Origin: Candidatus Gottesmanbacteria bacterium
GTDB lineage: Bacteria; Patescibacteriota; Microgenomatia; UBA10105; UBA927
DNA: 64,000 bases
Reading direction: 5' to 3'
NCBI GenBank assembly: GCA_023245335.1
Contig: JAHFKK010000001.1
Coordinates: forward strand, 81,918 to 145,917
The position numbers and the translations under genes were made by a program. Under the pieces are notes generated by a model that saw nothing but the letters and a program-made list of their open reading frames with translations, was not told where the DNA came from and did no database searches. Each line of letters begins with the position of its first letter. Position 1 is the first letter of the stretch. Of the stretch, positions 1 through 42,953 are shown piece by piece.

Positions 1-3000
1 CCCGCAATGATTGCATCCACCGTACCGGGCACGGGAGATTGAACGTTCTGCTGGGGCCGGACGACATACCCGGACCGACGAAACACCGTCGTGATTGTTT
101 GCGCGGTTCGTTGTATCGCAGCGATAATCTGTCTCGGAATACCAACGATACGATTACGGAAATCCGCCAACTGCTGCTGCCTCTTTACCTGGCCTGCGTA
201 TGTTTCTACCGCTTTCTTCTGTCCGGAAAACGCATCGGTCAACAATTTTTTGCTCGCAGAACTCAGCACATTGTTCGCCTGTTCATTCGTGATGCCGGTT
301 GCTTTCGCCAGGGCTTCTATCGCAGCCATACGATCATCTGCAACGACTCCATCTACCATCTCGGATGAAAGAGTTCCGAAATCGTAGAGCGTCCGGGATG
401 TTATGTACCGGGAAGCCGCAGATTCATATCGGTCAATTGCCGATACGGCGTCCTTATATGCCGGTTGCTGCAATGATTCCGGAGATACTGACTGACCGGA
501 TCGTACCAACGCTTCTTTCAAACGAGCTTGTATGTCGCCCTGTCTCGCATCGGACAATTTCTTACCGGTTGTGACGTCCGTGACGCTGGTACCGAACTGT
601 GTCAATAATTGAGATATATTTTTACCCAATTGTTGATATTGAGATAATGACGAGGAATTCGGAGCTAACGCTTCTTTTCTCTCCCGGGCAGTGGCTATGC
701 CCGTTTCGTCCAATGTATAATCGCCGGCAGCGGTATGGATAGTCACCTTCGTCGCGGTTATGGGAAGCGAGACAAACGGCGTTGCCGCGTTGATTCGATT
801 TTCGGTCTTATTTCCTCCTACTGATTCCTCGACTGTCATCTGCGTGCCGTCGGTAATCGTGAGCGCCACATTATTCCCTTTTTGATCCCGCACGATAACC
901 ACATCTCCTATGGTCAAAATTCCTGCGGTTTTCTCATATGCCCGTGATTCCAACCCTGCCTGTTCCTTTTGAGCCGTAGAGACGAGATCCGCGCCAGTCA
1001 GCCATGCGGCAGCTGCCGACAAAAGCGTCACGCGATTGGTGGCCGATGCGGAACGGCCGGTATTGACCCGGTCAGCAATCGACAGAGCGCCTTTCAGCGT
1101 ATTCTGAACGACATTTGCCTGCGTGATCTGCTGTTGTTGCGCTTCCACTGCAGTTCTCGTCATGGTGATTCGTTTTTCATCCACCCTGCCGGGAGTCAAC
1201 TGGGGTTCGGAATCGGCAGTCACTGTTTTGTTATGTGCGCTGCGGTAACTTGCAAGATCTCCTTGGAGAAGCGGTGCGTCCCGACTGTCGCCGGTCAGTA
1301 CGGCGGCATAGGCAAGCGGGTCCGCGCCGCTTGGTACCCCCTGCAACGCATTGCGACTGGCGAGCATACGGTTATAGATGTCCGGCGCCATCTTTTGAAT
1401 CGCTTCAAGATACTTCGTATTTGCGGAATCGGCAAAAAGCTGCCGATAAAAATCGACATCTCGAATAAACGCCGCATTTCTGGCAGTCAGCGTTTTACTC
1501 ACCTGTGCCTCCGCTTCTTCCGGCGTTTTGGGAATACTGAGACGGGTATCGAGCGGCTTTTCTGACGTCGAAAGCGTGAGGAGTTTTTGAGAGAACCAGT
1601 TGGCGACATCCTGGGCGATCGGATCATTAATCTCGCCAAATATCATGGCTCCGTGCGCGAGTGGGCGGCGAGCGGCGAGTTCAAGCCCCAGGGTATTTGC
1701 CTGTGCCGCTTGCGTCTTCTCATATTGTAACTGAACTTCCAATGCATGATTTTTAAACTCGGCAAACTGTTCCGGTGTCCCGCTTGCCGCCGCAAAATCG
1801 GTAACACGCGGAGCGTTTTTGTCTGCAAGGATAAGCTGCTGTTGTGCAATTCCCCCGGTGCGATCCAAACGGCTCGCCGACTGCAAAACAAGGTATTCTG
1901 GAGCATCTGTCGTGGTGAGCAAGGCCCCTGGCACATTTTCTGGCGTACGGATATTAGCTCCTGTTGCTGACCCTCGGTCCAGTATGGTCACGAGATTAGA
2001 CTCCCCTGCCTTGTATCGGGCGGCTAATGCATCTGCCGAAATTTCCCACTTTGCTAACGGCTCGCCGTTCGCATCCAGGTATCCGTCGGCAACAGCGCCA
2101 TCTTTGGTATATTTCATCTCATATAGTTTTTCTCCTCCGTAGGCTATGACATAGGTTTTGGAAGGATCTGCTGTTCCTTTTGCGATGGCTTGAGCTACGT
2201 CTTGTGCGCTTACCTGCAAATCCCCTCCGATAGTAATTTTCAGATTTCCTTTCGCGTCGGCCGCGAAGCTTTTCGCATAGTTCCCTCTTCTAATTCCGTC
2301 AACAAGCGCATCCACCGCCTGATCCGGAGCTACGCGCATAAACCGGTCGGCCGAGAGTCTCGTCTCCGCTTTCCCGTTCACGATGATGCTATCCTCAAAC
2401 ACGCGTGAAAATGTTTCGCCTTCGACGCGGGTGGAAAACCGATAGGCATTTTCCAAAACTCCCAACGTACTGCCGAGGGTACCGGTCACCCCGCCGACCT
2501 GAATATCACCAAAGAGAATGCGTGCATCAGCAATAACATCAGCGACTGTTGATTGATACGACCGCTCTGGCGCAACGGTAAGGTTTTCGTAGTTCGGCGT
2601 CTGCCCGTACGCGTATGCTCCGATCGCCTCCATGGCAGCCTGAGTGCGCGCTGTATACGTTTGCTGCGGGCTGGCAACTCCGTCATTTGCGGGAATGGTT
2701 ACATACCGTCCCTGCGCTTTGTTATAGACTCGCTGATAATTCGTCTCTTTGGCAAGCGGGAGGTTTTTGGCCATTTCGTTCAGCGCGTTGAGCACTTCCT
2801 GAGACTGGTGCGCCTGTTCCACCGTGAGTCCTTGTTGCTTCCATGCTTCTTCCAAAACAGCCGGGTTATCCCGAAACCGTTCGCCCAATTCGGAGACTTT
2901 TCGGAGACTGTCTTTGGGCAATCCTAATTTTTCCTCCAGTTTAGGAAGGACCGTAGACAAAGCTTCTTCAGAAAACCGCGGGTCGTTCACATGCTCCGTT

Positions 3001-6000
3001 ATGTCAGCGCCCTCGGCTGTTTTGCCGATCACTCGATCAAACCCGTCTACAATAGCCTGTCCGATACCCGGTACCTTCTTCCAAGCTGTCGGGTCATCCA
3101 TAGCAAGGATTTTTGCGTCGGCAAGGACCTCCTCTACTCCTCTCGTCGGATCGGTAATGGATTTACCCACGACGACATTGGATTCGTTGTTGGCGGGATT
3201 AATCATGTGAGTCCCGGTATCCATGGCCAAATGAATCTCGTCGATATTAAACCCAACGTTTTTAAGAGCCGAAAAGTATGCGTGAATAATATTGGCTCGT
3301 GTGGCAGCATCAGGATACGTCATGGTCGCCATATTTCTGATAAACGGCAGATCAGATGGCTCTACAATAATTGCCTTCGCTTTGGCTATCTGTGCAGAAA
3401 CTTTCGCGATATCATCGGCATTCCCATGAAACAAATCCGCATTGAGCCGCACTACATCTTCGGCGTTGGGATACAAGTCTTTTACATAGCCCTCAAACGT
3501 CCCTGCCTGCCCGTTCCGGAACATGATGACTGCTTTTCGACCAAATACTTCGTTATTTATCCGTGCCATCGCGGTGAGGACCCAGGTTTTCCCCTGAGAG
3601 GTCCCCAACTCCAGCGCAACTCCGTCATTCGAAAGCAAACTCAAAACTGTCTGAAGCTGTTTCGGACGGAATGAACGGAAATCATCTTCCCTAAGTGTCA
3701 GGCGGTATTCAGTATCCCGGATGATATTTTCCAGCTTGAGTCGTGTGGATTCATCCAGAGATTTGAATACCGAGAGGTCAACCTCTGTGGATGCCCGAAG
3801 CGAGTTAGCAAGTTCGGTGTTACCCTCACTTTCTGCTTTTCCAATCTGCGTCGTGAGATCCAGTTGCTTCAGAAGACTCCGTACGGAAATATCAGCTCTG
3901 GCTAACTGATCGCTTCCTGTGCCGTAAATCTTTTCGAGCGCAGTATCGAGCTTCACCATCGCTGCATCATGCGCGGTAAGCACGTCAGTACGATCTACCG
4001 TCGGATCAGTGAGGTTTCTGTGCGCCGCGATAAGCTCATCAAACGCGCTGAGAGCTTCCGATATGTTTCCTTGAACGAATAATCCTTTGCGATCTGCCAA
4101 CGTCTTTGCAAATGTTTCACGGAGCGCATCCACAGAAGGGACCGTTTCCTCCGGAAGAATCTTTTTGAAATATCCTTTACTGATTTCATCTATTTGGGCA
4201 AGTCGTTGAGTCCGAAGCTCGGACTGAGGCCCTTCAACACCTGCTTCTGCTTGACGATCCGCTACCCGTTCCAGTACGTCTATAGATTTGAGGACACGTT
4301 CAAATTCCACCTGAGCGTTGGTTATACCTGCATATTTTTTCGCCTGCTCAGGCGAGATTCCCACACCGGCCTCCTTCAAAAGTTGAGCTTTGATTTGCAC
4401 GGCTTTTCTGTCCGAAAGCGCCGTGACATCGGCGGTAGCCGAGCGGGCAAAAAGTCGAGAAGTTAACTCTCTGAACTGGCCTCGGATACTACCTGCATCG
4501 GCGATTGACCGATTCAGCCCGTCAATTTTTGCGGTAATTTGCAATTCTTGCGCCCTGGTTGACGAAAGTTCCGCTATGGTGTTGGTGACTTCCGTCTGAC
4601 GCTGCGCCGCGCTGTTTCCTATGGCGACATCCCGCGAAGAAATCGCCTCCATCCGGTCAAGGGACTGTTGCGCCTGGACGACTAACTCCCGCGCTTTATT
4701 TATGACAGAAGTATCTGCATTGTTGGTGATAAGGTCGGCAAGTTGTTGTTGACGGGTGTTGAGCCCATCCGTCCGAGTTTTCAGCTCGGCCGCTATGTCT
4801 TCAGGTCGGGACAAGTACGTAATAGTTTCGGCTAATTGCGTATCCTTCTGACTGAGCGGCTCGAGTGATTTTTGTACGGTATCTATTTGGTCGGCATACC
4901 CTTTTTGCACCCCGGTATAGCCGGACGTTTCTATGGTCTTTTTGACTGAGGTCAGCGCATCCTTGGCTGCTTCATACTCGGGCGATCCCGGTTCGTGGAG
5001 CTTAGCGACTTCAACGAACGCCTTTTCTTCCGCCGAAAAGTCGTTCAATTTGGCGCTTCTGCCGACTGCTGCTGCCGCCTGATCACCCAACGATGTCAGT
5101 TTCGGCTTTGTCCGCAAGGCCTGTTCATCCGTCACGATCTTCTGCTGCCCCGTGATTGCTACCTGGAGCTTCTGCACCATGTCGGGCGTAATCGATTTTG
5201 TGATACGCCCCGTCGCATCCCGGACTGCGTCTTTGAGCGTCCCGTCGGGATTTACTGCGTCTTTCCACTCTTTCGTCAGATCAGCAAGCTTTTGTTCGGG
5301 TACGGTAAAGTCCTTTGCGTCTTTCGGTAACTCTTTGATGATTTCTTTCACGGCTTTGTTCGTCGAGCCGACGAGCTGTCCGGCGGACATAATACCCGCG
5401 CCGTACGTCTGCTGTGATTCGGTGAAAAGCTGCGCACGGTTGGCATTCGTGACTTCTACTGACTGCATGGCATACGACGATTTGCCGTTTGCATCCGTTA
5501 CCAATTTCAAATAGGTCACACTGCTTCCTTCCGGTGCTTTTTGGATATCTCCCATCGCAGTCAACGCCTGCTCCTGTACCTTCCAAGGATCAGCAAACTG
5601 TGCCTGCGATTTCTGCAGGGACTCGACAGCCGCATGTCCAAACGTGAGTCCGGCCATCATCGCAGTCGTATGACAACGCTCAGATGACAATCCTTCCGCC
5701 GCGCAAGCCGCAACAGCTAGACCCGTGTTCACTGCCTGATCTGCGGTCATCACTGTTCTACCGACCGCAGTTGCCGGATTGGTGAGGCTCGCAGGAAGAA
5801 CTGCCCGGGTCCCGGACACTATAGCTAGCCCCGCAGAAAGTAAGCAATCCGCATTAAATGCTCCGGTCTTTGAACACGTATTCAGCGCCTGCGCACCAAA
5901 TGTCGCTGTCCCCACGACATTAAGAGCACGCTGGGCAAGTGGGTTTGGCGAATCGGCCGAAAATACTTTGGCAATCAAGTTTGTCGCTTTTGTGCTATTT

Positions 6001-9000
6001 TGTGTCGCGGTTTCAAGGGCTTTCTTTGAGACTGTAGCTGCGGCCTCTGCTTCTGTCGCCCTAACTGTCGCGTCTGCAAAAGCATTCTTCGCGTTTTGTA
6101 CCGCAATCTGCGCGGCTTCCGCGACGGCCTGCGCTTCGGTAGCTGTCGCCTGCGCTGCTACATTCTCCACTGCTTTTGCCGCAGCGGCTTGTAGCCGTTC
6201 GGCTTCCACCTTTGCAAGATCGGCTGTCGCTTGTGCACTGGCGGCTTTGGCAGCTGCATCAGCTACTTCTTTTGTTGCATTACCGACCGCCAAAGCAGCC
6301 CCGTCCGCCTGGGAGGCAAGATTAGCAACCTTCACCATCTGGTTAAGACCTCCCACGGAAGATATTGCCGATCCACCCATAAAAACGAGCATACCCGTTG
6401 ACATCGAGCATGCGCCGGCATCCATATCTGCGTGGAACGTACATTTGGTCGCCACATCCGTCGCGGCCGACCCGGTCATCTGGATAGAAAGCGCCGATCC
6501 CGCGACGTTGAGAAGCGCCGGCAATGTTACCGCGCTTATCCCTGCTCTGACCAACGCACCACCGGGGATAACCAACGCAAGTCCGTCCGCAACCGGTTCG
6601 GCCATGCCCATGACGATCGCGCGGCCCTTGTCCAATGTTGTGGAATTGGGATCATGATACAAAAGGTTCGCCCGGACCGTATTCCCGTGAAAAAACTCAT
6701 TCCAACCCATTTGGAATGCAACGGTCGGGTTATTTTTTTTGAGATCGTCGAAGGCTTGGGCGGTACCGGTGACGTTGGGTACTGTTCCATCAAGAACTTG
6801 TTGGACCCCGATCGGTTTATCCGCCGAATTCATGAAAAACTTGAGGTGCTCCACACTGTCAGAACCGCTCATGAGTGCCGCGAGTTGGGTTTTTTGCCAT
6901 TGTTGGATCACTTTGGGATCGGTCGTCCCGAGTTTTTGACTCCACGTCGTGGCATATTGTTTTTCGATATCGGGGTCCAATCCGGAAACGTATGCATCCG
7001 CAAGCGCCGTCGCCTGCTGATATTTGACCTGATCGGTAATCGCAGCGAGCGCCCGTTGCGTCTGCGGAGCCAGCCCGCCCCGACCGCGGTTCGCCCCACT
7101 GTACTGCAACTGCGCCTGTTGATACGTCGCGTTTGCAGCGTCTAATTGCGCCTTGAGCTGATCGACGCTTCCCGTGCTGTGGAGTGCGGCATTGGTAACC
7201 CAACCGGGGTCGTATGCCAACAACTCCTTCGCGCCGCTTACCTGATATCCCCCGGCCCGCACATTGTCTTCCAACGCGTACACCGTCTCCAGACGGTGTA
7301 CCGCAAAATCCGCCATCGTCTTATGCGCGGGATCGGTAACAGTTTTTTGCCAGTCAGCGTATTCTTTTTTGAGGGACGGATCGTTATTGACTCCTTGTTC
7401 CAGCGTAGAGAGGCTATTGGGGTTCGTTTTGACGTTATAGTCAACTACGATTTTCGCCGCCTGTGTCTGTTGGGATTTCACGCCCTCGGGGTTGAGCCTG
7501 GAAGCTCCTCCGCTTGAAAACGAATCAAAGATACTTACAAGAGGCGACTTTATTTTATCCCCGAGACTAAACGTTGCCACCGCCTTTTCGACACTGCGGG
7601 TACCGGATAATAGATCATACAAATAGGCGTTTTCACTCTCCTGAGAATTCGGATGAACCAATCCGAGTTGCTCCAGCTTTGGTTTATTCTTGTAATACAA
7701 CTCCATCTCATGCGCCAGGTAATCTTCCGGGGTTTTCCCCTTGTTTTCAGCCAACCACTTCTGAGCTTCCGGATTCGTGGGCTGCGCCGCCAGGAACTGT
7801 TTTTTGGTATCCGGAGAAAGCAAGTCGACATACCCCTGCCCGTGTGTGCGGGCGACTCCGGGAAGTTCTCCCAACGTATTCTGTATGTTAATTTTTGAAG
7901 TCGTGTACAAATCAGAAACGCTAGTGGCGGCCCAGGTGCTAAAACTGGCCCCGGCAGTATTCAGGGAATGTATCCAACCGACCTTTCCTCCCGTCGCGGT
8001 ATCCAGTACCCCCGCGAGTGTCGGAAGTTTCGCGACGCTATTTATCGCTGCGGCCTGGCGGTTAGCCGCTTCCAAGGGAACAAATTTCCCCGCCTGCCAG
8101 TCCGAAACATTTTTCTCGAGCGTGCCGTCTGCTTTCCATACTTGCTCCATTTGCGTGATCGCTTGCTGATTTGCGATATCATAACCTTCTTTTTTCTGTT
8201 GCTCGGTCTGTACCCCGCCCCGCCCCATAGCGGCAAGCTCTTTTTCATACGTCACAAATTTTTGAGCATATGCACTGTCTTTGGGTACCTCATCCACTAG
8301 CGGTTTCGGCTGTATTTGCTTAATCGTACTATCCGCCTGTGCCTGTAAACTACCGGGCAATCTCCCACGGAAATTTGCGAGAAAAGCATCTCTACTTTTT
8401 TCGTCCGTACAGGTCTGACAGAGCTCCTGAAGCTTTTTGGGGTCAACGCTCGCTGCGACATAATTCTGAAAATCTTTGCTTAACTGAATATCCGCATTTG
8501 CCTGTTCGAGATCCGCTGTTTTTAAGCTTGCCCGCATCGTTGCCAAAAATGCTTGTTTCTTGGCAGCGGTATCACAGTATGAACCGCATTGTCTGACAAG
8601 TTCATCGTCGGAGAGACTTGCATTTTTATAGTTTGATATATTGTTATATCGTGTGACAACATCAGTGGCCCAGGCAGAATTGACTTTCTTAAGATTATCA
8701 ATCACTCCAAATGCGTTCTCGCTGCACTGATCCCTCTCTCCTTTGTCCGTAGCACCGCCACAAGCTCCCCGTGCCTGTGCGTAATCATAAAGGTATTTAT
8801 TTTGGATATAGTCCGAAAAACCTTTATCCAGCTCTGATGTATCTGCTCCGTAGTAGCCGTCCGTTTGCTTAAACGCCTGACTCATGAGCGACTGTATATC
8901 GGCACATGCCGCCGCTCCTTTGCCATTTTTATTCTCGCAGCCGGCCAGCAGTTCTTTTTGTTTGTAATACTCAGTGGCTGCATTTCCTGCGACGGTCTGA

Positions 9001-10022
9001 TTAAGTCGTTCTACTCCGGCAGAAGAAATCTGCGCATCAGTTAGCCCGACGGCCACGAGCGCTTGTTTGGCTTGCGCCAACTGCTTACTCAGGGAGGCGC
9101 ACTCGGATGAGCCTCCTGCCGATTTGACGCATCGGTCATAAAACTGGGTGTTGAGATCAAAATACGTCTGCAGTTTCGGCTGTATGATGTTCTGATTTTG
9201 CTGTTCTATCCCGGCGGCAGAAATTTGTTCCTGGGTTAACCCGGCAGCAAGGAGCGCCTGTCTGGCTTGAGTAAGCTGGGTTCCAAGCGCCGAACATTGG
9301 GAAGAACCTCCCCCTGACTTGACGCAAGTATCGTAAAATTGAGTATTAAGATCAAAATAAGTCTGCAGTTCTTTCTGATGCGTGGTGGTAAGGCTCGTTT
9401 TGTTGTACAGGTACTGCAGATCCTTTTGTGACGGCCCTCCTGCGCTTTCCGATACGGGATAATACTTACCGTTGGGCGCCTTATAAAAACCGGAAACATC
9501 GACGCCGGACGCACATCCGCCGCCAGTTTTACAATCGTATCCGGTCCTGTTCTGTTCGGCATCCGAATTTTTAATTTGATCGAGCGTATATCCGCCTCTG
9601 GTATCCGGTGATGAAGCCGCCGGCGAATTTGATGCGCCGTCACCATTTCCTGAACCCCCGACCGACGGATTATTCTGAGTTGCCTGCTGCGCATTGATAT
9701 CCTGCGAGAGTTTCATCTGGCATTTATCACCGGCGTCCGAATTTCCTAACGCATCGCATCCCTTTCTTCGTGCCGCAATATCGTTGGTAGTTAGCTTGGG
9801 CGCCGGAGGGTACGCTTGATCATCTTTTTGTTTTGGGGGGCTTTCTCCTCCGGGTCCACCTGAACCTGAAGGGGGTGGTTTCGATGCCGGAGCCGGGGGC
9901 GCATGGACACACCCACTTCCTTTACACCCGTTCTCTATTTTCCATTTTGCGCCACCTGATGCGAAATTTCGTATATCCGCTATTTGCGGCAACCCCCCCA
10001 CTCGCCAAACGATAATTCCCAT
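1..10022 (-). CDS. Giant membrane-anchored surface protein of at least 3,340 aa, hypothetical. It is 3'-truncated by the window edge, and the true start may be an upstream TTG (10121) or GTG (10202/10220).
   Basis: By manual reverse-complement translation, one minus-strand frame (codons phased to 10022) stays open from the stop at 10227-10229 down to position 1. The ORF track omits it because no stop lies inside the window, the same behaviour it shows for edge-truncated copA. No + strand ORF above 300 aa exists across these 10 kb. The N-terminus is a hydrophobic anchor (...KSGFIPVWSLLLLAVFVVSMGIIVW). It carries Cys-containing tandem modules (QTYFDLNTQFYD[TR]CVKS[GA]GGSS.C) and an Ala-rich helical tract (AAKAASAQATADLAKVEAERLQAAAAKAV...). 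The manual translation may contain individual base-reading errors. Confidence 0.6.
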   Translation of the reverse strand, partial: MGIIVWRVGGLPQIADIRNFASGGAKWKIENGCKGSGCVHAPPAPASKPPPSGSGGPGGESPPKQKDDQAYPPAPKLTTNDIAARRKGCDALGNSDAGDKCQMKLSQDINAQQATQNNPSVGGSGNGDGASNSPAASSPDTRGGYTLDQIKNSDAEQNRTGYDCKTGGGCASGVDVSGFYKAPNGKYYPVSESAGGPSQKDLQYLYNKTSLTTTHQKELQTYFDLNTQFYDTCVKSGGGSSQCSALGTQLTQARQALLAAGLTQEQISAAGIEQQNQNIIQPKLQTYFDLNTQFYDRCVKSAGGSSECASLSKQLAQAKQALVAVGLTDAQISSAGVERLNQTVAGNAATEYYKQKELLAGCENKNGKGAAACADIQSLMSQAFKQTDGYYGADTSELDKGFSDYIQNKYLYDYAQARGACGGATDKGERDQCSENAFGVIDNLKKVNSAWATDVVTRYNNISNYKNASLSDDELVRQCGSYCDTAAKKQAFLATMRASLKTADLEQANADIQLSKDFQNYVAASVDPKKLQELCQTCTDEKSRDAFLANFRGRLPGSLQAQADSTIKQIQPKPLVDEVPKDSAYAQKFVTYEKELAAMGRGGVQTEQQKKEGYDIANQQAITQMEQVWKADGTLEKNVSDWQAGKFVPLEAANRQAAAINSVAKLPTLAGVLDTATGGKVGWIHSLNTAGASFSTWAATSVSDLYTTSKINIQNTLGELPGVARTHGQGYVDLLSPDTKKQFLAAQPTNPEAQKWLAENKGKTPEDYLAHEMELYYKNKPKLEQLGLVHPNSQESENAYLYDLLSGTRSVEKAVATFSLGDKIKSPLVSIFDSFSSGGASRLNPEGVKSQQTQAAKIVVDYNVKTNPNSLSTLEQGVNNDPSLKKEYADWQKTVTDPAHKTMADFAVHRLETVYALEDNVRAGGYQVSGAKELLAYDPGWVTNAALHSTGSVDQLKAQLDAANATYQQAQLQYSGANRGRGGLAPQTQRALAAITDQVKYQQATALADAYVSGLDPDIEKQYATTWSQKLGTTDPKVIQQWQKTQLAALMSGSDSVEHLKFFMNSADKPIGVQQVLDGTVPNVTGTAQAFDDLKKNNPTVAFQMGWNEFFHGNTVRANLLYHDPNSTTLDKGRAIVMGMAEPVADGLALVIPGGALVRAGISAVTLPALLNVAGSALSIQMTGSAATDVATKCTFHADMDAGACSMSTGMLVFMGGSAISSVGGLNQMVKVANLASQADGAALAVGNATKEVADAAAKAASAQATADLAKVEAERLQAAAAKAVENVAAQATATEAQAVAEAAQIAVQNAKNAFADATVRATEAEAAATVSKKALETATQNSTKATNLIAKVFSADSPNPLAQRALNVVGTATFGAQALNTCSKTGAFNADCLLSAGLAIVSGTRAVLPASLTNPATAVGRTVMTADQAVNTGLAVAACAAEGLSSERCHTTAMMAGLTFGHAAVESLQKSQAQFADPWKVQEQALTAMGDIQKAPEGSSVTYLKLVTDANGKSSYAMQSVEVTNANRAQLFTESQQTYGAGIMSAGQLVGSTNKAVKEIIKELPKDAKDFTVPEQKLADLTKEWKDAVNPDGTLKDAVRDATGRITKSITPDMVQKLQVAITGQQKIVTDEQALRTKPKLTSLGDQAAAAVGRSAKLNDFSAEEKAFVEVAKLHEPGSPEYEAAKDALTSVKKTIETSGYTGVQKGYADQIDTVQKSLEPLSQKDTQLAETITYLSRPEDIAAELKTRTDGLNTRQQQLADLITNNADTSVINKARELVVQAQQSLDRMEAISSRDVAIGNSAAQRQTEVTNTIAELSSTRAQELQITAKIDGLNRSIADAGSIRGQFRELTSRLFARSATADVTALSDRKAVQIKAQLLKEAGVGISPEQAKKYAGITNAQVEFERVLKSIDVLERVADRQAEAGVEGPQSELRTQRLAQIDEISKGYFKKILPEETVPSVDALRETFAKTLADRKGLFVQGNISEALSAFDELIAAHRNLTDPTVDRTDVLTAHDAAMVKLDTALEKIYGTGSDQLARADISVRSLLKQLDLTTQIGKAESEGNTELANSLRASTEVDLSVFKSLDESTRLKLENIIRDTEYRLTLREDDFRSFRPKQLQTVLSLLSNDGVALELGTSQGKTWVLTAMARINNEVFGRKAVIMFRNGQAGTFEGYVKDLYPNAEDVVRLNADLFHGNADDIAKVSAQIAKAKAIIVEPSDLPFIRNMATMTYPDAATRANIIHAYFSALKNVGFNIDEIHLAMDTGTHMINPANNESNVVVGKSITDPTRGVEEVLADAKILAMDDPTAWKKVPGIGQAIVDGFDRVIGKTAEGADITEHVNDPRFSEEALSTVLPKLEEKLGLPKDSLRKVSELGERFRDNPAVLEEAWKQQGLTVEQAHQSQEVLNALNEMAKNLPLAKETNYQRVYNKAQGRYVTIPANDGVASPQQTYTARTQAAMEAIGAYAYGQTPNYENLTVAPERSYQSTVADVIADARILFGDIQVGGVTGTLGSTLGVLENAYRFSTRVEGETFSRVFEDSIIVNGKAETRLSADRFMRVAPDQAVDALVDGIRRGNYAKSFAADAKGNLKITIGGDLQVSAQDVAQAIAKGTADPSKTYVIAYGGEKLYEMKYTKDGAVADGYLDANGEPLAKWEISADALAARYKAGESNLVTILDRGSATGANIRTPENVPGALLTTTDAPEYLVLQSASRLDRTGGIAQQQLILADKNAPRVTDFAAASGTPEQFAEFKNHALEVQLQYEKTQAAQANTLGLELAARRPLAHGAMIFGEINDPIAQDVANWFSQKLLTLSTSEKPLDTRLSIPKTPEEAEAQVSKTLTARNAAFIRDVDFYRQLFADSANTKYLEAIQKMAPDIYNRMLASRNALQGVPSGADPLAYAAVLTGDSRDAPLLQGDLASYRSAHNKTVTADSEPQLTPGRVDEKRITMTRTAVEAQQQQITQANVVQNTLKGALSIADRVNTGRSASATNRVTLLSAAAAWLTGADLVSTAQKEQAGLESRAYEKTAGILTIGDVVIVRDQKGNNVALTITDGTQMTVEESVGGNKTENRINAATPFVSLPITATKVTIHTAAGDYTLDETGIATARERKEALAPNSSSLSQYQQLGKNISQLLTQFGTSVTDVTTGKKLSDARQGDIQARLKEALVRSGQSVSPESLQQPAYKDAVSAIDRYESAASRYITSRTLYDFGTLSSEMVDGVVADDRMAAIEALAKATGITNEQANNVLSSASKKLLTDAFSGQKKAVETYAGQVKRQQQLADFRNRIVGIPRQIIAAIQRTAQTITTVFRRSGYVVRPQQNVQSPVPGTVDAIIA

Positions 10023-10390
10023 GGAAACGACAAATACGGCAAGAAGGAGAAGCGACCATACTGGGATAAATCCGGATTTTGTTTCTTTTTTACTATATCT
10101 ATCTATAAAGAAATAGAACAAGTGGGAGGATTTTTGAAGATCTTGCAGGCAAGTTGATATATTCTTTTTTGTACTCTTAATCGCTGTGTTTGATGAATCC
10201 ACGTTGAAACGGCAAATCACCCGGTGTCACCAAACCAGCCTCGCATAGACGTGAGTCTAGGCGGGCCCCCTATAACATCAGGTGCTGTATTATTACTATG
10301 ATGAAATATAGCTATAAGTGTCAATAGCCTAGTTGAAAGTCAAAATTAGGGTGTTGACATTTCACGAAAACCGCGCGAAACTAAAAATTA

Positions 10391-10609
10391 ATGAAACGAA
10401 AACACGTTTCCCATCATCGACACCAAGCAGTCAGAGTTACCCGAACGGCTAAACCGAAAGAGCATTACCTTGTTGTCGTCCGGAGTTGGATGCTTCTGGT
10501 CATGTTTGCTCTCATGCTCGGTCTTGGAGCAGTCGTAGGCACATATCTCAACCAGCAGTCATCGGCTAATACCCCCACAGTTGCCGGAGTACAAACTGAA
10601 GCAAAGTAA
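10391..10609 (+). CDS. Small hypothetical membrane protein, 72 aa, with a basic N-terminus followed by one TM segment.
   Basis: ATG-start ORF MKRKHVSHHRHQ...LLVMFALMLGLGAVVGTY, followed directly by an intrinsic terminator. No recognisable family. Confidence 0.4.
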   Translation: MKRKHVSHHRHQAVRVTRTAKPKEHYLVVVRSWMLLVMFALMLGLGAVVGTYLNQQSSANTPTVAGVQTEAK

Positions 10610-10630
10610 TAACTGGGAATCAATAAAAAA

Positions 10631-10657
10631 CAGGAAGCCGTAAGGCTTCTTTTTTTA
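10631..10657. terminator. Bidirectional rho-independent terminator hairpin (GGAAGCC GTAA GGCTTC) with a T-run on the + strand and T-rich sequence on the minus strand.
   Basis: The sequence caggaagccgtaaggcttctttttttat is seen directly. On the minus strand the same stem is followed by ctgttttttatt. Confidence 0.6.
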
Positions 10658-10702
10658 TGGCCGTGCCACACGTAGCTCCGACTGAAAGTCGAGAGCGAAG
10701 TG
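10658..10702 (-). repeat. Conserved 45-nt tRNA 3'-trailer element, copy 1 of 2. The second copy is at 10852..10896.
   Basis: tggccgtgccacacg[t/g]agctccgactgaaagtcgagagcgaagtgtgg is identical in both copies except for one base, and each copy sits immediately 3' of a different tRNA-Ala gene. On the transcribed strand it can fold as CCACAC...GTGTGG, enclosing an inner CTCCGAC/GTCGAG hairpin. Confidence 0.6.
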
Positions 10703-10773
10703 TGGACCCGAGGGGAATCGAACCCCTTTCTACTCCATGCCATGGAGTCGTTCTACCGGTATACTACGGGCCC
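10703..10773 (-). tRNA. tRNA-Ala, anticodon GGC.
   Basis: The reverse complement reads GGGCCCGTAGTATACCGGTAGAACGACTCCATGGCATGGAGTAGAAAGGGGTTCGATTCCCCTCGGGTCCA. It has a 7-bp acceptor stem with the G3:U70 Ala identity pair, a T-arm GGGG-TTCGATT-CCCC and an anticodon loop ATGGCAT. CCA is not encoded. Confidence 0.8.
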
Positions 10774-10851
10774 GGTTGATTGTCCCACTCTTACAACGAA
10801 CGCTTCGCGGGACAATCTTCGCATTTTCCAATCAGTCAAGTTTATTACGAG

Positions 10852-10896
10852 TGGCCGTGCCACACGGAGCTCCGACTGAAAGTCGAGAGCGAAGTG
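10852..10896 (-). repeat. Conserved 45-nt tRNA 3'-trailer element, copy 2 of 2.
   Basis: See copy 1. Direct repeat seen in the sequence. Confidence 0.6.
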
Positions 10897-10970
10897 TGGA
10901 CCTGAGCGGAGTCGAACCGCTGATCTCCGCAATGCGAATGCGGCGCTCTACCAACTAAGCTACAGGCCCC
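10897..10970 (-). tRNA. tRNA-Ala, anticodon CGC.
   Basis: The reverse complement reads GGGGCCTGTAGCTTAGTTGGTAGAGCGCCGCATTCGCATTGCGGAGATCAGCGGTTCGACTCCGCTCAGGTCCA. It has G3:U70, the D-loop AGTTGGTAGAGC, the T-loop GGTTCGACTCC and an anticodon loop TTCGCAT. Confidence 0.8.
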
Positions 10971-11037
10971 GTGATGGCAATTATACATAAATTTCCGTTC
11001 ATTAACACGTTGCTCCGCACTGAAGAATTAACTGAGG

Positions 11038-36492: not shown

Positions 36493-36630
36493 TCCTTGAG
36501 TCCCCCGGCCTCGACCTATCTTCCAAGTTCCTTGCGAAACAGGTATTGTCAGCGCTAACATGTTTCACTTCCCTGTTCGGAATGGGAAAGGGTGGTGCCA
36601 TGTCGCTTAGGAGACCGAAAGGCTCAAGGA
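36493..36630 (-). rRNA. rrf: 5S rRNA.
   Basis: The reverse complement contains ...GCACCACCCTTTCCCATTCCGAACAGGGAAGTGAAACATGTTAGCGC..., matching conserved 5S helices (CCGAAC...GTGAAAC). The ends TCCTTGAG/CTCAAGGA pair as helix I. The exact ends are approximate. Confidence 0.8.
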
Positions 36631-37046
36631 TACGAACAAAATTTGTTCGCACATATCTTTTGTAGTACGTAATTGCCTCATAAGGGGGAACTTCCCTACC
36701 TTCTCGTGGTATTCCGCTTAAAAGCGGAAATTCAGTCTGAACAATCAGACATCCTTTGTTCCCCACAACTTCGACCGATTAGTACGAGTAAGCTAAGCGC
36801 CTCACAGCGTGTACACTCCTCGCCTATGTACGTAGTCATCTACTACGGGTCTATAACGATTTTTCATCTTGGGGCGGGCTTGGCGCTTGAGATGCTTTCA
36901 GCGCTTATCCCAACCGGATCTAGCTACCCTGCGATGCCGGCACGAATGCGCGACAACAGGCACACCAGGGATCCGTCCTTCTAGGTCCTCTCGTACTGTA
37001 GAAAGTCCCCCTCAAAAATCAAACGCCCACACAGGATAGAGACCGA

Positions 37047-37429
37047 CAAATTTGTTAATCTGTACATCGCTGTACAGTTCGGACTATATCTTTCCGCCCA
37101 AGGCGGATCTGACATGTAGTCTCTGAGGGTTCCCACGACAACGTCGGGGCCTTCCCTGCTGATTGTCTGGCACGTTATACGTGCCTTTACCGCGTTTAAC
37201 GCGGGGCACCATAAAACGATCAATGTTACATTTTCACTACAAAACTGTAGTAGCAACATATACTGCCAGAGTTTCCAGCAAATAGTCAGATTTATCTCCA
37301 CGATGCACTGTGTGCATCGGGATTGTTTTCTTCTTCTATAACAGTCAATTATGAATTCTCGAAGTGGTTACAAAACGTCTGAAAACAAGACAGCTCATTA
37401 TGACGGGATCTCAATCCACGCCAAGGTCT
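37047..37429 (-). mobile_element. Group I intron of about 383 nt with no ORF, inserted in 23S at the E. coli L2593-equivalent site (GACAGU|UCGGUC).
   Basis: The exon sequence is interrupted exactly between conserved GACAGT and TCGGTC, and the exon 1 side ends in U. The insert ends with G (omega-G) and carries a group I catalytic core: cagAGACTAcatgtcagatccgccttgggcggaaagataTAGTCcgaac (P7 5' strand, P8, P7 3' strand) plus GGGAAGGCC (P4/P6-like). Confidence 0.7.
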
Positions 37430-38085
37430 ACTGTCTTACGACGTTCTGAACCCAGCTCGCGTACCCTTTTAACCGGCGAACAGCCGGACCCTTGGGAGCT
37501 TCTCCACCCCCAGGATAGGATGAGCCGACATCGAGGTGCCAAACCGCCTCGTCGCTATGGACGCTCGGAAGCGATCAGCCTGTTATCCCCGGAGTAGCTT
37601 TTATCCGTTAAGCCCGCTCCCTCCCACGAGGGATGCGAGGATCACTAACACCTACTTTCGTATCTGCTCGACCTGTCCGTCTCGCAGTTAAGCTGGCTTG
37701 CCGCGTTTGCACGACACGTCCTGGTTTCCATTCAGGATTAGCCAACCTTTGTACGCCTCCGTTACATTTTTGGAGGCAACCTCCCCAGTTAAACTGCCCG
37801 TCTGACAGTGTCCTGTTCCGGGATTTTTATGCCGGAATAAGTAAGATTTCATCATTTCGAAGAGAGGTATTCCATTGTTGCCCGAAGGCTCCCTCCTATA
37901 CTCGACAGTCAAAATAATGTCTTCAGTGCCAAATTACAGTAAAGCTTCACGGGGTCTTTTTGTCCATGTGTGGGTAGGCCGCATCTTCACAGCCATTTCA
38001 ATTTCGCCGGGTAATGGTTCAAGACAGTTGCTATGTCATTCTGCCTTTCGTGCGGGTCGGAACTTGCCCGACAAGGAATTTCGCT

Positions 38086-38368
38086 CATCAAATAGTTGTG
38101 TTACCTTTATGTCGCCATAAAGATCAGACTATATCTTTCCGCCCAAGGCGGATCGCACGTCTAGTCGTTGAGGGTTTCCCCGACGCACGTTGCGTCGTGG
38201 ATCTTCCCTGCTGATTGACTCCGCTGACTGATTGTTACCTTGCGGTACAGTCAGATACACCGAGTTGTTCCAGCATATAGTGCAATTTTTCTGATTACCC
38301 ACTTTCCTTCTGCACGATGAGTATCAGAGAGGTTTGACTACCTCACTATGGCAACGAAAATATTCTTC
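38086..38368 (-). mobile_element. Second group I intron of about 283 nt with no ORF, inserted in 23S at the L1931-equivalent site (CUA.GGU|AGCGAAAUUCC).
   Basis: The conserved helix 69-71 sequence is split. Exon 1 ends ...AACTGTTCTATGGT and exon 2 resumes AGCGAAATTCCTTGTCGGG. The intron ends in G and carries the same core as intron 1 (caACGACTAgacgtgcgatccgccttgggcggaaagataTAGTCtgatc), followed by a P9-like hairpin CTTTATGgcgaCATAAAG. Boundaries are accurate to about 3 nt. Confidence 0.6.
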
Positions 38369-39835
38369 ACCATAGAACAGTTATAGTTACTGCTGCCGTT
38401 CACCGGAGCTTAAAAAGCTAGCTTCCAACTTTCGAAGGTCACCAACCATTTTTAACTTACCGGCACTGGGCAGGCGTCAGCCCCTATACGTTGCCTTTCG
38501 GCTTCGCAGAGACCTGTGTTTTAGTTAAACAGTTGCATAGCATCATTTACTGTGACCTCGCTTACGCGAGGCAGGGCATCTCCAATATGTTACGCCCAGC
38601 TTTTGTTGCCGAGTTCCTTGAACCATGATCACCCGCTTGTCTTGGTACTCTAATACCAGCGCACCAGTGTCGGTTTGCGGTACGGACAAAAATATGTTCC
38701 CCAACGAGGCTTTTCTTGGAAGCGAAACTATGTGCATTGCCCGCAGCTTGCGCTTTGGACTTCCTGTCACTCCTCAAGTTAAACATGAAAACGGATTTGC
38801 CAATTCTCACTACTTTGGAGCTTCGTGGCTTTTCAACCAGCACACACATTCCCCTTCGTTACCCCTTTAGGTCTTAATCAACATACTTTCGGTACAGGAA
38901 TATCAACCTGTCATACATCGAGCTACGCCCACAAAAAGCGGGCCTCGCCTTAGATCCGACTCACCCGAAGTCGACGAACGTTGCTTCGGAAACCTTGCGC
39001 ATTCGACAATAAGGATTCTCACCTTAAAACGCTACTCATGCCGGCATTCGCACTTCTATCCGCTCCACACCGGTTTCCACCGTATGCTTCACTGCAAATA
39101 GAACGCTCCCCTACCACGTAAACCAAAATAAATTTTAGATTACATCTCTGTCTTCGGCGCTTTGCTTGAGCCTCGATCATTTTTGGCGCCGCAGTTTTCA
39201 TCCAGTGAGCTGTTACGCTATCTTTAAAAGGTGGCTGCTTCTAAGCCAACTTCCTGGGTGTCTTAAAACCGCGACTTCCTTAACCACTTAGCAAAGAACT
39301 TAGAGGCCTTAGACGAAAATCTGGGATGTTTCCCTTTAGCCACACGAGCTTAGCCCCGCATGACTGACTGCCTGGATAACGGTAACTGTATTCGGAGTTT
39401 CATAGAAAAATCTCGATTTCTCTTGACATTTCTTTGAGTGCTCTACCCCAGTACCACATAACCAGACGCTATACCTAAATATATTTCGGGGAGAACCAGC
39501 TATCTCCGGGTTCGATAGGCATATTACCCCTAACCACAAGTCATCTCACAGATTTGTAACTCTGACGAGTTCGGGCCTCCTGTCTGATTTCTCAGACACT
39601 CACCCTGCTCATGGTTAGCTCACCCGGTTTCGGGTCTATTACGACGTACTGTATTGTCGCCCTATTCGGACTTGGTTTCCCTGCGCCTCCCCCCTCTTCG
39701 GGGTTAAGCTAATGCACGTCGAAATAACTCACCGGCTCATTCTTCAATAGGCACGCGATCATCCGCCTTGCGGCAGACTCTCGCTGTTTGTTAGTCGACA
39801 ATTTCAGATACTATTTCACTCCCCTTCCGGGGTGT

Positions 39836-39873
<38 letters not shown>

Positions 39874-40715
39874 GCAGTTGCGTGTTTAGTCTTGGAGGAT
39901 GGTTCCCCCAGCTTCCCACATGGCCTTCGTGCCACATGGTACTTGGGAACAGACTAGAGGTGTTTTGAGTTTCGGATACGAGGTTTTCACTCTCTTTGAC
40001 TACCTATTCCGAGGTATTCTCCTACTCTCAACACTCCCATATTGTCTGCCCCACAACCCCCAGATAAATCTGGGTTTAGACTTTTCCGCGTTCGCTCGCC
40101 GCTACTGACGGAATCTCATTCGATTTCTTTTCCTCACCCTACTTAGATGTTTCAGTTCAGGTGGTGCCCCTCACACTGTTACCTCAATCTTTCGACTGAC
40201 TTCGCAGTGCAATGACCATAAATGGTCGGATTGCTCCATTCGGAAACCGCCGGATCGCGGGATATTGACTCCTCCCCGGCGAATATCGCTGCCAATTGCG
40301 TCCTTCTTCGGCACAACTGCCCAAGGCATCCATTGTCGACTTGTAGCGTTGCGGAGAACAAAAGATATCTCAATCCGCCTCCCCGGCGGAAAGAGATCTT
40401 TGTTTCCCCTTAAAAACGAAATAGCCACGATAAGAAGGAAAAATTCCCCCTTACGCGGCAACTACCATACTACAAATAAATATCTGTGTAACAGGAATTG
40501 CACCTGCACTACACAAATGTCATTAAATTATTAATGAGCGAATTCGCGCTCTTGTCGCGAGAATACGCGCCTATTATATATAAGGTATGTATTCCCGATA
40601 CAAGAACCGTGTTCAATCTCTATGGCGTCCCGCCTTCATCAGGTTTGTGGCGCCGCGACTACGCGGCATCCACATCAGTACGGCTTGCTCGTCTACGCAC
40701 AACGCCTACTGTCTG

Positions 40716-40788
40716 TGGACCCGGGCGGAGTCGGACCGCCTACCTCTTCATTGCAAATGAAGCGTTCAACCAGGTAAACTTCGGGCCC
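40716..40788 (-). tRNA. tRNA-Ala, anticodon UGC, upstream of 23S.
   Basis: The reverse complement reads GGGCCCGAAGTTTACCTGGTTGAACGCTTCATTTGCAATGAAGAGGTAGGCGGTCCGACTCCGCCCGGGTCCA. It has G3:U70, an anticodon loop TTTGCAA and a T-arm GGCGG-TCCGACT-CCGCC. Confidence 0.75.
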
Positions 40789-41088: not shown

Positions 41089-41949
41089 TTAAATTACTCG
41101 TACCATCGCTGCTAACAATTCCTCTGCCTCCATTTTTCCTGCACTTCTACTCTCGGCTATAAACACTCCCAAAGCCATATAAATCATCTTGCCTGTTGCC
41201 GTGTGGAGGGGCGATCTCTCCTGCAGCATCGCCAACCGCGATGTTGCTTGTTCAAACAAGGCGCCAGCAATAGGTATTTGAGATATGATGCGTATATAGC
41301 TTTCAAGGGTTGCCCCATTTACATAATCGTTCGTTTCCTTCCACCCTGTTTGGATTGTATCAGCCCCCTTATCCGCTACCTCATGGATAAAGCCGCGTTT
41401 CCCGGATAAATTCTCCGCGAACTTGTTGCCAAGTGCAGTCGCGTATTTATCGTTCATAACATCAATTAATTTTCTCATTGCACGGTTTCGTGCGTTGAAT
41501 CTTAACTGATCAGATGTCAAATGAAGTTTGTTAATAATATTTTGTTTAGGCTCTTCTTTGTCTAGTGTGACCGGGAATAACCACTCAACTGGCTTACTCG
41601 TGACATAATCAAATGCGGTAAAAAGAGTAATAATCTTAACGAGTGCACCCACCCGCTCCAATCGCTCTTCTACTCCACCAATATCCTTCTCACCACGGAA
41701 TTCATAGTCGATCTTTCTGATATGCGTGCCGGCATTTTTGATGAACTTCCCGGGGTCCGTGATCCACTCGTACGAAGCATCCCGGAATGCATCCCACTTA
41801 ATGGGCTTTTTTTCCTTGTCGTATGGAGTATATTCCCCCATCTGAAGGACTTTTTGCCAGTGCTTTTGATTCGCCTCAGTCAAGTCTTTTTTCCACGAAG
41901 CGACTGCGTCAGTTGAGGCCGAAAATCTTGGTGCTTCTTTGGTTGTCAT
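41089..41949 (-). CDS. Hypothetical protein, 286 aa. Member of a three-copy paralog family in this locus.
   Basis: Its C-terminal region (NDYVNGATLESYIRIISQIPIAGALFEQ) aligns with 42039 (DFINPVNVEAAFRLVEEIPVVGEGVHW) and 44678 (RFINSMVNPSTIEAGFRTLSAIPIGGHIVEN). It has no TM segment and no signal peptide. Confidence 0.6.
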   Translation of the reverse strand: MTTKEAPRFSASTDAVASWKKDLTEANQKHWQKVLQMGEYTPYDKEKKPIKWDAFRDASYEWITDPGKFIKNAGTHIRKIDYEFRGEKDIGGVEERLERVGALVKIITLFTAFDYVTSKPVEWLFPVTLDKEEPKQNIINKLHLTSDQLRFNARNRAMRKLIDVMNDKYATALGNKFAENLSGKRGFIHEVADKGADTIQTGWKETNDYVNGATLESYIRIISQIPIAGALFEQATSRLAMLQERSPLHTATGKMIYMALGVFIAESRSAGKMEAEELLAAMVRVI

Positions 41950-42038
41950 ACAAAAACGACGCCACTAGGCATCAAGCAGTATTGTACCATACAAATGAGC
42001 CTATAGCAATATAAGGGATGTCGCGTAATATCGGACTA

Positions 42039-42953
42039 TTAGACCTGTTTTACGTTTCTGCCGATGTGGAATCCGAGGATGCCTTTCGAGGCGAGCGTAT
42101 TCGTCCATTTACCCACGGTAGCCTCCAACGCAACATCGGATTTCTCACGCAGCCAATGGACGCCCTCCCCGACCACGGGAATCTCTTCCACTAGACGGAA
42201 GGCAGCCTCAACGTTCACGGGGTTTATGAAATCCATAGTTTTATACGCACCCTTCAATTTGAACACATGTCTATAGGTATTTGGTATATTTTTATCTTTA
42301 CCCCATTTGATTTTGAACAGATCGTCAGCAACCCATTTACCATTAATGGTTGGGTGGGGCAATTTCTTCCCAATAAGCACATCATCAAAAAATACCTGGC
42401 TGATTATGTTTCCCCAATCAGCAAGAAAAGCTGAAGTTTCAGACACATACTTAGCCTCGTTTATACCCGTCATCATGCGTACCCAGGCATTGGCTGCTGT
42501 GGCGTATAGATTATCTGACGCCCATTCTTCCGCAAAATCAAAGGCGCCTTGCAAGCCTTGTTCCCGTTTCGCTGCATTCGTCAACTTCTCTTTCTGCTCT
42601 TGCCAATTTTTAGCCAAATGAGCAGCGTTCTTGGCAATGTCTTGATCGTAAGCAGGTTGGTCATATGTATTAGCAGTGTCCTTCATCGCATCAACACGTT
42701 TTTCAAGCTTATCCCGGAATAGATTCGTCACAAGATTACCTTCCACTAAATCAGCAGCAGTTGCGCCCAAAAGGATAGAAAAGTTTAGACCGGCACGTTT
42801 CATACCGTCACCAGGCTGAGATTGAGATTTGAATTCAGGAAGAAGGAGCCTCTGGGAGCCCCGTTGTGATGGAGAAAATTCTCTGGTTTCTGCGCTCATA
42901 TTTTCTGAAAAACCAAACGATCTACGCTTGGTTAAAAAAGGAGTATACCACAC
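42039..42953 (-). CDS. Hypothetical protein, 304 aa, paralog of 41089 and 44678.
   Basis: Shares the [FY]IN....T.EA.FR....IP..G motif block. Soluble, and Trp-rich in its C-terminal half. Confidence 0.6.
   Translation of the reverse strand: MWYTPFLTKRRSFGFSENMSAETREFSPSQRGSQRLLLPEFKSQSQPGDGMKRAGLNFSILLGATAADLVEGNLVTNLFRDKLEKRVDAMKDTANTYDQPAYDQDIAKNAAHLAKNWQEQKEKLTNAAKREQGLQGAFDFAEEWASDNLYATAANAWVRMMTGINEAKYVSETSAFLADWGNIISQVFFDDVLIGKKLPHPTINGKWVADDLFKIKWGKDKNIPNTYRHVFKLKGAYKTMDFINPVNVEAAFRLVEEIPVVGEGVHWLREKSDVALEATVGKWTNTLASKGILGFHIGRNVKQV

Follow-up and report, generated by a model that had tools for sequence, protein, structure and literature searches.

A giant gene of Candidatus Gottesmanbacteria encodes a putatively membrane-tethered protein with a predicted SecA-like ATPase core

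What occupies the first 10 kb of this Candidatus Gottesmanbacteria DNA, where a program-made list of open reading frames (ORFs) appears empty? We addressed this question in a 64-kb stretch of contig JAHFKK010000001.1, which is referred to below, at its full length, as the window. An initial annotation had placed in this region a single giant minus-strand gene for an extracellular, adhesin-like protein. Our analyses indicate that the region almost certainly contains the 5' part of a real, single and functional giant gene. They also suggest a different kind of product, which belongs to a rare protein family and has as its conserved core a predicted ATPase that resembles the SecA motor. Residues of the protein are numbered from position 10226, and the coordinates of its features are collected in Table 1.

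Six-frame translation of positions 1-11000 revealed a minus-strand frame that runs without a stop from 10226 to 3, has a TGA at 10229-10227 as its upstream boundary and does not close before the window ends. The other five frames contain 77-172 stops each, and the chance probability of an open frame of 3,408 codons is ~1e-71. At least 3,373 aa of the giant protein are encoded within the window. The region looked empty for a reason unrelated to biology: the ORF list leaves out ORFs that run off a sequence end, and the largest complete ORF that it gives within 1-10229 is 292 aa. The best database match (P0001; NCBI MCL4200413.1, recorded as "partial") is collinear with the window protein in one BLAST alignment that spans aa 329-3389 (~3,060 aa), and there is no frameshift. 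The initial annotation was thus right about the frame being open throughout and about its absence from the ORF list, and its concern that the frame might break up into several genes was not borne out. Paralogous giant genes, which it had also raised, were searched for within the 64-kb window and none was found. Orthologous frames are longer still, at more than 6,552 codons in two loci (L003 and L016) and more than 6,558 in a third (L015), all unclosed at the ends of the DNA examined, and at least 6,623 codons on the contig that encodes P0001 (L001). Since orthologues reach at least 6,550-6,620 codons, the window holds about half of the gene, which in full is probably ~20 kb long.

Two relatives show interruptions of the kind expected if such frames were decaying pseudogenes, assembly fusions or products of chance. 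The orthologue at L002 (16551-22657) falls into three ORFs that overlap one another (4,528, 720 and at least 1,331 aa), and the P0001 record ends at a 10-N scaffold gap (L001, 17178-17188) while the frame continues. A non-functional frame is nonetheless extremely improbable, given the unbroken run of codons in the window, collinear protein-level conservation with relatives from different species, invariant catalytic residues, an invariant set of six Cys in the hydrophobic module described below, a conserved promoter and the occurrence, in four independent assemblies, of frames that exceed 6,500 codons without a break. The two interruptions show that public records fragment giant genes, so that database lengths underestimate true size.

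An exhaustive HMMER search with aa 2143-2909 against 1.84 billion representative proteins recovered 26 matching cluster representatives, 13 of which are giant proteins of 3,004-7,842 aa with a common core of ~850 aa (phmmer E values 9e-209 to 4e-30). This giant-protein family is very rare. Its named members, P0001 and P0002, are both called just "hypothetical protein". Related loci were drawn from a scan of one genome per species (12 loci from 185,579 species) and from 241 million metagenome records (5 loci), and a giant open frame is present at all 17. Informative organism names among these loci are limited to Candidatus Gottesmanbacteria, Parcubacteria and Paceibacterota, with the others carrying generic metagenome-assembled genome labels; among the loci with an informative name, the family is confined to the candidate phyla radiation (CPR). 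The window protein fits this CPR family (P0001-P0014, L001-L019) in its core, its anchor, its Cys-rich region and its second hydrophobic segment. We found no paper that describes such giant proteins in CPR bacteria.

The core provides the main clue to function. An AlphaFold2 model built on a family alignment of 12 cores (A1, with 40 invariant columns) adopts a two-lobed fold (pLDDT 84, pTM 0.79). When this model was searched against the PDB with Foldseek, the top nine matches were all SecA or SecA2 (E 2.6e-12 to 5.5e-9, alignments of more than 900 columns), followed by the XPD and DinG helicases (E 6e-9 to 1e-6). The predicted core thus finds its closest structural counterpart in SecA/SecA2 (PDB 2fsf, 1tf2, 3bxz, 4uaq), and two RecA-like lobes are present in both. 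The arginine fingers and motifs I, II, III, V and VI, which characterize SecA as a two-lobe superfamily-2 ATPase, are invariant in the family; beyond the invariant residues of motifs I-III listed in Table 1, these include K99 in Walker A and T641, G642, I645, T647, Q668, R672 and R675 in motifs V and VI. The particular motif variants also resemble those of SecA (E-[LM]-x-T-G-x-GKT, G-x-TGT and GRG-x-x-TG/D-x-I), and Walker A lies ~100 aa into the domain, as it does in SecA. An inserted domain between motifs II and III sits where SecA has its preprotein-binding domain, and a predicted 47-residue helix sits where SecA has its scaffold helix, both being matched by position and not by superposition of folds. 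Four to five predicted helices follow the long helix, and the wing region appears reduced. The predicted fold of the core resembles that of SecA most closely, and it is likely that "SecA-like", outside the SecA family as sequence models define it, is the appropriate term. We likewise have good confidence that the core is an active ATPase of the SecA type.

The rest of the protein is arranged around this core in an order that recurs across the family: a Cys-rich part, a second hydrophobic segment and a Cys-poor remainder that bears the core. A hydrophobic segment is found near the N-terminus of almost all full-length relatives, and enrichment of Cys directly after it is a family-wide feature. 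In the window protein, 24 Cys lie downstream of TTG 10121, all in pairs 3-12 residues apart. Nine of these pairs (aa 101-606) recur every 55-75 aa, with one clear tandem duplication (aa 284-347 versus 349-412; 8991-9377, by self-BLAST with the diagonal masked) and the sequences of the other modules too diverged for them to qualify as repeats. Past a polar, Cys-free stretch, the hydrophobic module at aa 1200-1540 contains three Cys-x(9-10)-Cys loops between helices, all six Cys of which are invariant in alignable relatives. Ala makes up 30% of aa 1201-1400, and part of this Ala-rich tract is an insertion without a counterpart in orthologues. Three structural elements described in the initial annotation, namely the N-terminal hydrophobic anchor, the Cys-containing tandem modules and the Ala-rich tract, were accordingly recovered. 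The hydrophobic module itself is probably a second membrane-crossing module, judging from its hydrophobicity and from a strong membrane segment at the corresponding position in relatives. We also observed that one part of the ectodomain (aa 786-1085; 6972-7868) is a mosaic, with 46-53% identity to the L002 orthologue and 23-27% to that of L003. Outside this part the two orthologues differ little in their distance from the window protein, and the pattern may reflect cassette exchange or recombination.

From hydrophobicity, the distribution of Cys and the kinds of domain present we derived a topology, according to which most of the giant protein probably lies inside the cell. Four lines of evidence lead to this placement. 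The 1,888 aa between positions 1519 and 3408 lack any Cys, compared with 0.6% Cys in the other proteins of the window (P ~1e-5). The ATPase would need cytoplasmic ATP. In Parcubacteria-type relatives, two strong membrane segments (Kyte-Doolittle >2) bracket only the Cys-rich 700-1,200 aa, and the remaining 4,000-5,500 aa come after the second of these. Finally, the C-terminal extensions of some relatives carry domains known from cytoplasmic signalling, which supports a cytoplasmic location for everything past the second membrane module. These extensions vary between lineages: one tail (L009, 12596-21748) contains two protein-kinase domains, a PP2C domain and an MgtE_N domain, P0005 has an FHA domain at aa 3405-3473, P0001 has a HopA1-family match (aa ~4293-4387) just over the Pfam threshold (24.6 bits against a cutoff of 22.7), and the tail at L013 shows no recognisable domain. 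The part of the gene inside the window encodes no kinase, PP2C, MgtE_N, FHA or HopA1 domain. The closest orthologues also contain a strongly hydrophobic segment of ~50 aa some 820-880 aa after the core, the equivalent of which in our protein would lie ~420-470 aa past the window edge.

The giant gene sits in a conserved chromosomal setting. The window shares one gene order with four Gottesmanbacteria-type loci (L002, L003, L015 and L016): Rho, an M23/LysM peptidase, two tRNA-Ala genes, then the giant gene. Within this shared arrangement the proteins differ greatly in their conservation: between the window and Gottesmanbacteria-type loci, Rho shows 91-93% identity and the M23 peptidase ~81% (93% and 81%, respectively, for the flanking copies of Candidatus Gottesmanbacteria UBA6580), and the giant protein is overall only 33-37% identical to its orthologues. 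Within the giant protein, the core reaches 41-63% identity, as against 19-30% over the greater part of the first 2,000 aa. The combination of conserved synteny and a diverging giant protein shows that the gene is vertically inherited and evolves much faster than its neighbours. A mobile element inserted at the tRNA-Ala genes was considered and rejected, since related genomes have the same gene order and there are neither integrase nor conjugation genes.

The best overall explanation of these features is a membrane-tethered giant protein that combines an exposed Cys-pair ectodomain with a cytoplasmic SecA-like motor, an account to which we give about an even chance of being correct. In this arrangement the N-terminus would lie inside the cell, followed by the first membrane segment and by an exposed, disulfide-stabilised and fast-evolving Cys-pair region of about 1,100-1,400 aa. 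A second membrane module would then lead into a very large cytoplasmic region made up of the linker, the SecA-like motor and a lineage-variable tail. Tethered at the membrane, the motor would use ATP to push polypeptide across it. What it moves might be the large ectodomain of the giant protein itself (in cis or between copies), or else dedicated partners belonging to a surface or pilus-like apparatus, and the exposed ectodomain would mediate contact with the environment or a host. That polypeptide translocation is the motor's job is argued by analogy with SecA, and we propose it more tentatively, as somewhat short of an even chance.

Several observations weigh against this account. Sequence searches of Pfam, NCBIfam, PHROGs, PADLOC and the PDB link nothing to SecA: none of the 12 family cores matches Pfam SecA_DEAD at E up to 10, a PDB profile search with alignment A1 gave nothing, and comparison of A1 with E. 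coli SecA brought up the Walker A region alone, both with hhalign (6.8% probability) and with hmmsearch (not significant). The whole protein likewise has no match to SecA_DEAD, SecA_PP_bind, SecA_SW or an NCBIfam SecA model at E up to 1, and its best library matches are at chance level (HTH_10, E 0.06; LmuB, E 0.015). The second membrane module, on which the topology depends, is weakly hydrophobic (Kyte-Doolittle 1.5-1.7); its AlphaFold model (aa 1180-1560, from a four-sequence alignment) failed, with a pLDDT of 44, and the helix-loop-helix pattern seen in it is taken with caution. Since translation reaches the ectodomain before the motor, the protein could export itself in cis only post-translationally. 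There are, moreover, no pilus or secretion genes upstream of the giant gene in the window, where tRNA-Ala, M23 peptidase and Rho genes are found instead.

A different interpretation of the core is that it functions as a nucleic-acid helicase or translocase, for example in a DNA-uptake or processing device coupled to type IV pili, and that its likeness to SecA reflects the shared two-lobe fold only. CPR bacteria depend on pili and competence proteins for DNA uptake, and the XPD and DinG helicases returned by Foldseek likewise contain insertions in lobe 1. In addition, homologues of PilN and PilO are encoded directly upstream of the giant gene, on the same strand, at three of the 17 related loci, all of Parcubacteria type (L006, 515-4048; L008, 331-3291; L010, 662-4236). 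A small ORF and a protein of ~570-625 aa, which carries FN3/Ig-like domains in L006, are also encoded between the pil homologues and the giant gene at these loci; the giant gene starts 4-32 nt after the gene for this protein in L006 and L010, and a further 503-aa ORF intervenes in L008. We nevertheless regard the helicase interpretation as unlikely. Motif III (GxTGT), motif V (GRG..TGD.I) and the residues ahead of Walker A follow SecA and not DEAD, DEAH or XPD proteins, the large insertion separates the same two motifs (II and III) as that of SecA, and Pfam and NCBIfam scans detected no nucleic-acid-binding domain anywhere in the protein. The protein might instead be a transmembrane sensing or signalling scaffold, with an ectodomain that binds a ligand and an ATPase that acts as a regulatory or remodelling switch without translocation. 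The bitopic, "loop-out" layout of relatives with a very large cytoplasmic tail would suit such a role, as would the Ser/Thr kinase, PP2C, FHA and MgtE_N domains in those tails and the fast-evolving, mosaic ectodomain. Yet the signalling domains come and go between lineages and none is detected in the window part, the sole universally conserved element is a motor with a complete catalytic set, and the nearest structural relatives of that motor are translocases and helicases that move along polymers, which together make a signalling scaffold quite unlikely.

The essentially extracellular, N-terminally anchored adhesin for host attachment envisaged in the initial annotation agrees with several features: the anchor, the Cys-pair tandem modules, the polar composition, the CPR origin and a rapid divergence typical of surface proteins. 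What survives of that proposal is the anchor, the Cys modules and a putative ectodomain; its extension to the whole protein does not fit a bulk that is probably cytoplasmic and holds a predicted SecA-like ATPase. The Ig-like, cadherin, beta-helix and choice-of-anchor domains that it led us to look for are absent from Pfam and NCBIfam scans of the protein, which detected no adhesin-type domain. An ATPase with invariant nucleotide-binding and hydrolysis motifs, a Cys-free final 1,888 aa, a second membrane module and relatives' kinase, PP2C and FHA domains, known from cytoplasmic signalling, are all difficult to reconcile with an adhesin, which we consider very unlikely. Within the SecA-like account there is also a more far-reaching variant, in which the protein would be a single-polypeptide secretion or injection device of CPR bacteria whose motor threads partner proteins, or the protein's own variable, effector-like tail domains, to the outside and perhaps onward into a host cell. 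We view this as a long shot. It is equally speculative that the Cys-rich ectodomain would then be the host-recognition part of a new class of contact-dependent translocator. If true, the injection-device variant would offer a direct molecular handle on CPR-host interaction.

A comparison with SecA itself reveals both parallels and differences. The two resemble each other in motifs I, II, III, V and VI and in the position of Walker A, and the model places a large insertion between motifs II and III and a helix of ~47 residues after lobe 2; there is no significant sequence similarity. SecA, however, is a free protein of ~800-1,000 aa that docks on SecYEG, whereas the window core lies ~2,100 aa deep within a membrane protein longer than 6,000 aa, its wing region looks much smaller and no C-terminal zinc/SecB-binding tail is seen. 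The accessory Sec system (SecA2/SecY2) exports very large serine-rich adhesins in Gram-positive bacteria and thus resembles our proposal in linking a dedicated SecA-type motor to export of one very large surface protein. That system divides motor, channel and cargo among different genes, and its motor can be recognised as a paralogue of SecA, whereas here the motor and putative cargo would be one polypeptide. Giant adhesins, for their part, consist mostly of tandem adhesin folds and are wholly extracellular, whereas the window protein has one detectable duplication and a C-terminal part that is probably cytoplasmic.

The closest parallel in the literature is provided by giant membrane proteins of Omnitrophota and some Actinobacteria, which carry divergent SecA DEAD-like domains (West-Roberts et al., 2023, bioRxiv 10.1101/2023.11.21.568195; see also 10.64898/2026.06.07.730766). 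For Omnitrophota giants with divergent SecA domains near type II secretion-like genes, the domain has been proposed to serve export (10.1101/2023.11.21.568195). Like the CPR family, they are membrane-associated proteins of great length from ultra-small bacteria that probably depend on hosts, and both groups contain a fast-evolving SecA-like domain inside the giant protein, a likeness at the level of description. As in the Omnitrophota type, the SecA-like domain of the window protein is part of a polypeptide of great length with hydrophobic segments, of which one is strong and several are weak in the window protein. Both groups also include relatives with Ser/Thr phosphatase-type and other enzymatic domains, and genes of type II secretion or type IV pilus-like systems are found close to some members of each. 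The differences are that Pfam PF07517 recognises the Omnitrophota SecA domains and not the CPR core, that the Omnitrophota giants are reportedly without a scaffold domain whereas the CPR core model has a scaffold-like long helix, and that the CPR proteins are smaller (~4,000-8,000 aa versus 10,000 to more than 80,000 aa). Unlike the Omnitrophota giants, neither the window protein nor the relatives scanned with Pfam contain glycosyl hydrolase or other carbohydrate-active, dockerin or peptidase C39 domains. Judged by its predicted core, the CPR family is a more diverged version of the SecA-domain giants of Omnitrophota, one that had so far gone unannotated.

With this assignment, the recently noticed connection of SecA-like domains with giant proteins would hold not just in Omnitrophota but also in the CPR, a large share of bacterial diversity whose host interactions are mostly unknown. 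A giant gene that takes up ~2% of a ~1-Mb genome represents a heavy investment, and preserved synteny with fast divergence is the pattern expected of a molecule at the interface between a cell and its environment or host. The only universally conserved element of the family appears to be a SecA-type ATP motor that is invisible to sequence-based annotation, which suggests that "hypothetical" giant genes of CPR bacteria need not be simple adhesins. Genes of this kind are also hidden by ORF tracks that drop end-truncated ORFs. The core, at ~900 aa, is a concrete, testable domain that can be expressed on its own.

Table 1. Features of the giant gene and its upstream region, in window coordinates
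Feature	Position	Strand	Basis or remarks
Sigma-70-type promoter candidate (TTGACA, 18 nt, CATAGT)	10295..10324	-	10/12 consensus matches
Leader block of 21 nt, GGTTTGGTGACACCGGGTGAT	10216..10236	-	Conserved in three loci; includes the upstream TGA and GTG 10220
Start-codon zone	10119..10202	-	Candidates GTG 10202-10200 and TTG 10121-10119
Open frame, 5' part of one giant gene	3..10226	-	3,408 codons, no stop; collinear with P0001
N-terminal membrane anchor, aa 54-74	10005..10067	-	Kyte-Doolittle 2.52; Lys/Arg-rich residues ahead of it
Nine Cys-pair modules, aa 100-610	8397..9929	-	Putatively extracytoplasmic, disulfide-stabilised
Polar Cys-free part of putative ectodomain, aa 611-1199	6630..8396	-	Composition
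Hydrophobic Ala/Gly-rich module, aa 1200-1540	5607..6629	-	Kyte-Doolittle 1.5-1.7; candidate second membrane-crossing module
Ala-rich tract in hydrophobic module	5967-6344	-	
Cys-free polar linker, aa 1541-2114	3885..5606	-	Composition; 19-30% identity to orthologues; helical/coiled-coil assumed
Conserved family core, aa 2115-3010	1197..3884	-	~850-900 aa; predicted SecA-like superfamily-2 ATPase
Walker A (motif I), ELGTSQGKT / VALELGTSQGKT	3585..3611	-	E. coli SecA AEMRTGEGKT / IAEMRTGEGKT; E, L, T, G, K invariant
Walker B (motif II), IDEIH	3231..3245	-	E. coli SecA VDEVD; D215, E216 invariant
Inserted alpha/beta domain, ~220 aa, between motifs II and III	2520..3179	-	Secondary structure and motif positions
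Motif III, GGVTGT	2478..2495	-	E. coli SecA AGMTGT; T467, G468 invariant
Motif V, DRGSATGANIRT (DRGSATGANI), and motif VI, QSASRLDR	1860..1979	-	SecA AGRGTDI (V) and QLRGRSGR (VI)
Predicted 47-residue helix, core residues 704-750	1635..1775	-	Directly after second ATPase lobe
Continuation past core, aa 3011-3408	3..1196	-	Runs off window; shared with closest orthologues only (P0001, P0012), 27-33% identity

Comparison with orthologues narrows down where translation begins. The candidate start codons on the minus strand (GTG 10220, GTG 10202, TTG 10121 and ATG 10022) sit where the initial annotation had placed them, and its argument for a non-ATG start upstream of the anchor is sound: the sole strongly hydrophobic segment, IPVWSLLLLAVFVVSMGIIVW, spans ATG 10022, so that a non-ATG start is required. 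Protein-level conservation (LF[YH]FFID) begins at TTG 10121, the equivalent of which is CTG in L002 and L003, and L003 and L001 also have a GTG 81 nt ahead of the conserved block, equivalent to GTG 10202. From this comparison, the start appears to be either GTG 10202 or TTG 10121. GTG 10220 is unlikely to serve as the start: in L003 and L001 the corresponding codon runs into an in-frame stop, and in L002 it lies in another frame.

Further upstream, the TTGACA-18-CATAGT block is nearly invariant among the three aligned loci (the window, L002 and L003) and is a probable sigma-70-type promoter. The leader block is probably untranslated. The DNA between the promoter-like site or leader block and the coding block diverges among the aligned loci, with indels. 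We note that the leader block may be a regulatory element (window 10216-10330 and the equivalents in L002 and L003).

Other genes in the window place the locus in its genomic context. The window encodes Rho, RadA, ribosomal protein S1, glutamate dehydrogenase and three tRNA-Ala genes; it is chromosomal and CPR-like, from a bacterium of Gottesmanbacteria type. The CPR origin given in the initial annotation agrees with the Rho and M23 peptidase identities to Candidatus Gottesmanbacteria UBA6580, with the shared gene order and with two group I introns in the 23S rRNA gene. This gene (36759-40356, within the region 36503-40788 on the minus strand) holds the introns at 37060-37364 and 38105-38335, is preceded by a tRNA-Ala(tgc) gene and is followed by a 5S rRNA gene, and no 16S rRNA gene is found anywhere in the 64-kb window. 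The unlinked, intron-bearing arrangement suggests the rRNA organisation typical of CPR bacteria. The tRNA-Ala pair (ggc, cgc) between the M23 peptidase and giant genes (window 10702-10969) is inverted in L003 (2290-2580), and in L002 (1791-2742) its two genes lie on opposite strands, which indicates small local rearrangements within otherwise conserved synteny.

Two further groups of genes were observed on the far side of the rRNA genes. Three consecutive minus-strand genes (46939-53406) encode proteins of 659-745 aa, each with a C-terminal ABC-transporter ATPase domain, and are preceded by five consecutive ORFs (41089-46898) without a Pfam match. On the same strand, a thioredoxin-reductase-like gene adjoins a gene for a DsbD_2 membrane protein fused to a cupredoxin-like domain (58401-61196). 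This pair could constitute extracytoplasmic thiol-disulfide machinery of relevance to a giant protein with 12 putative disulfide loops.

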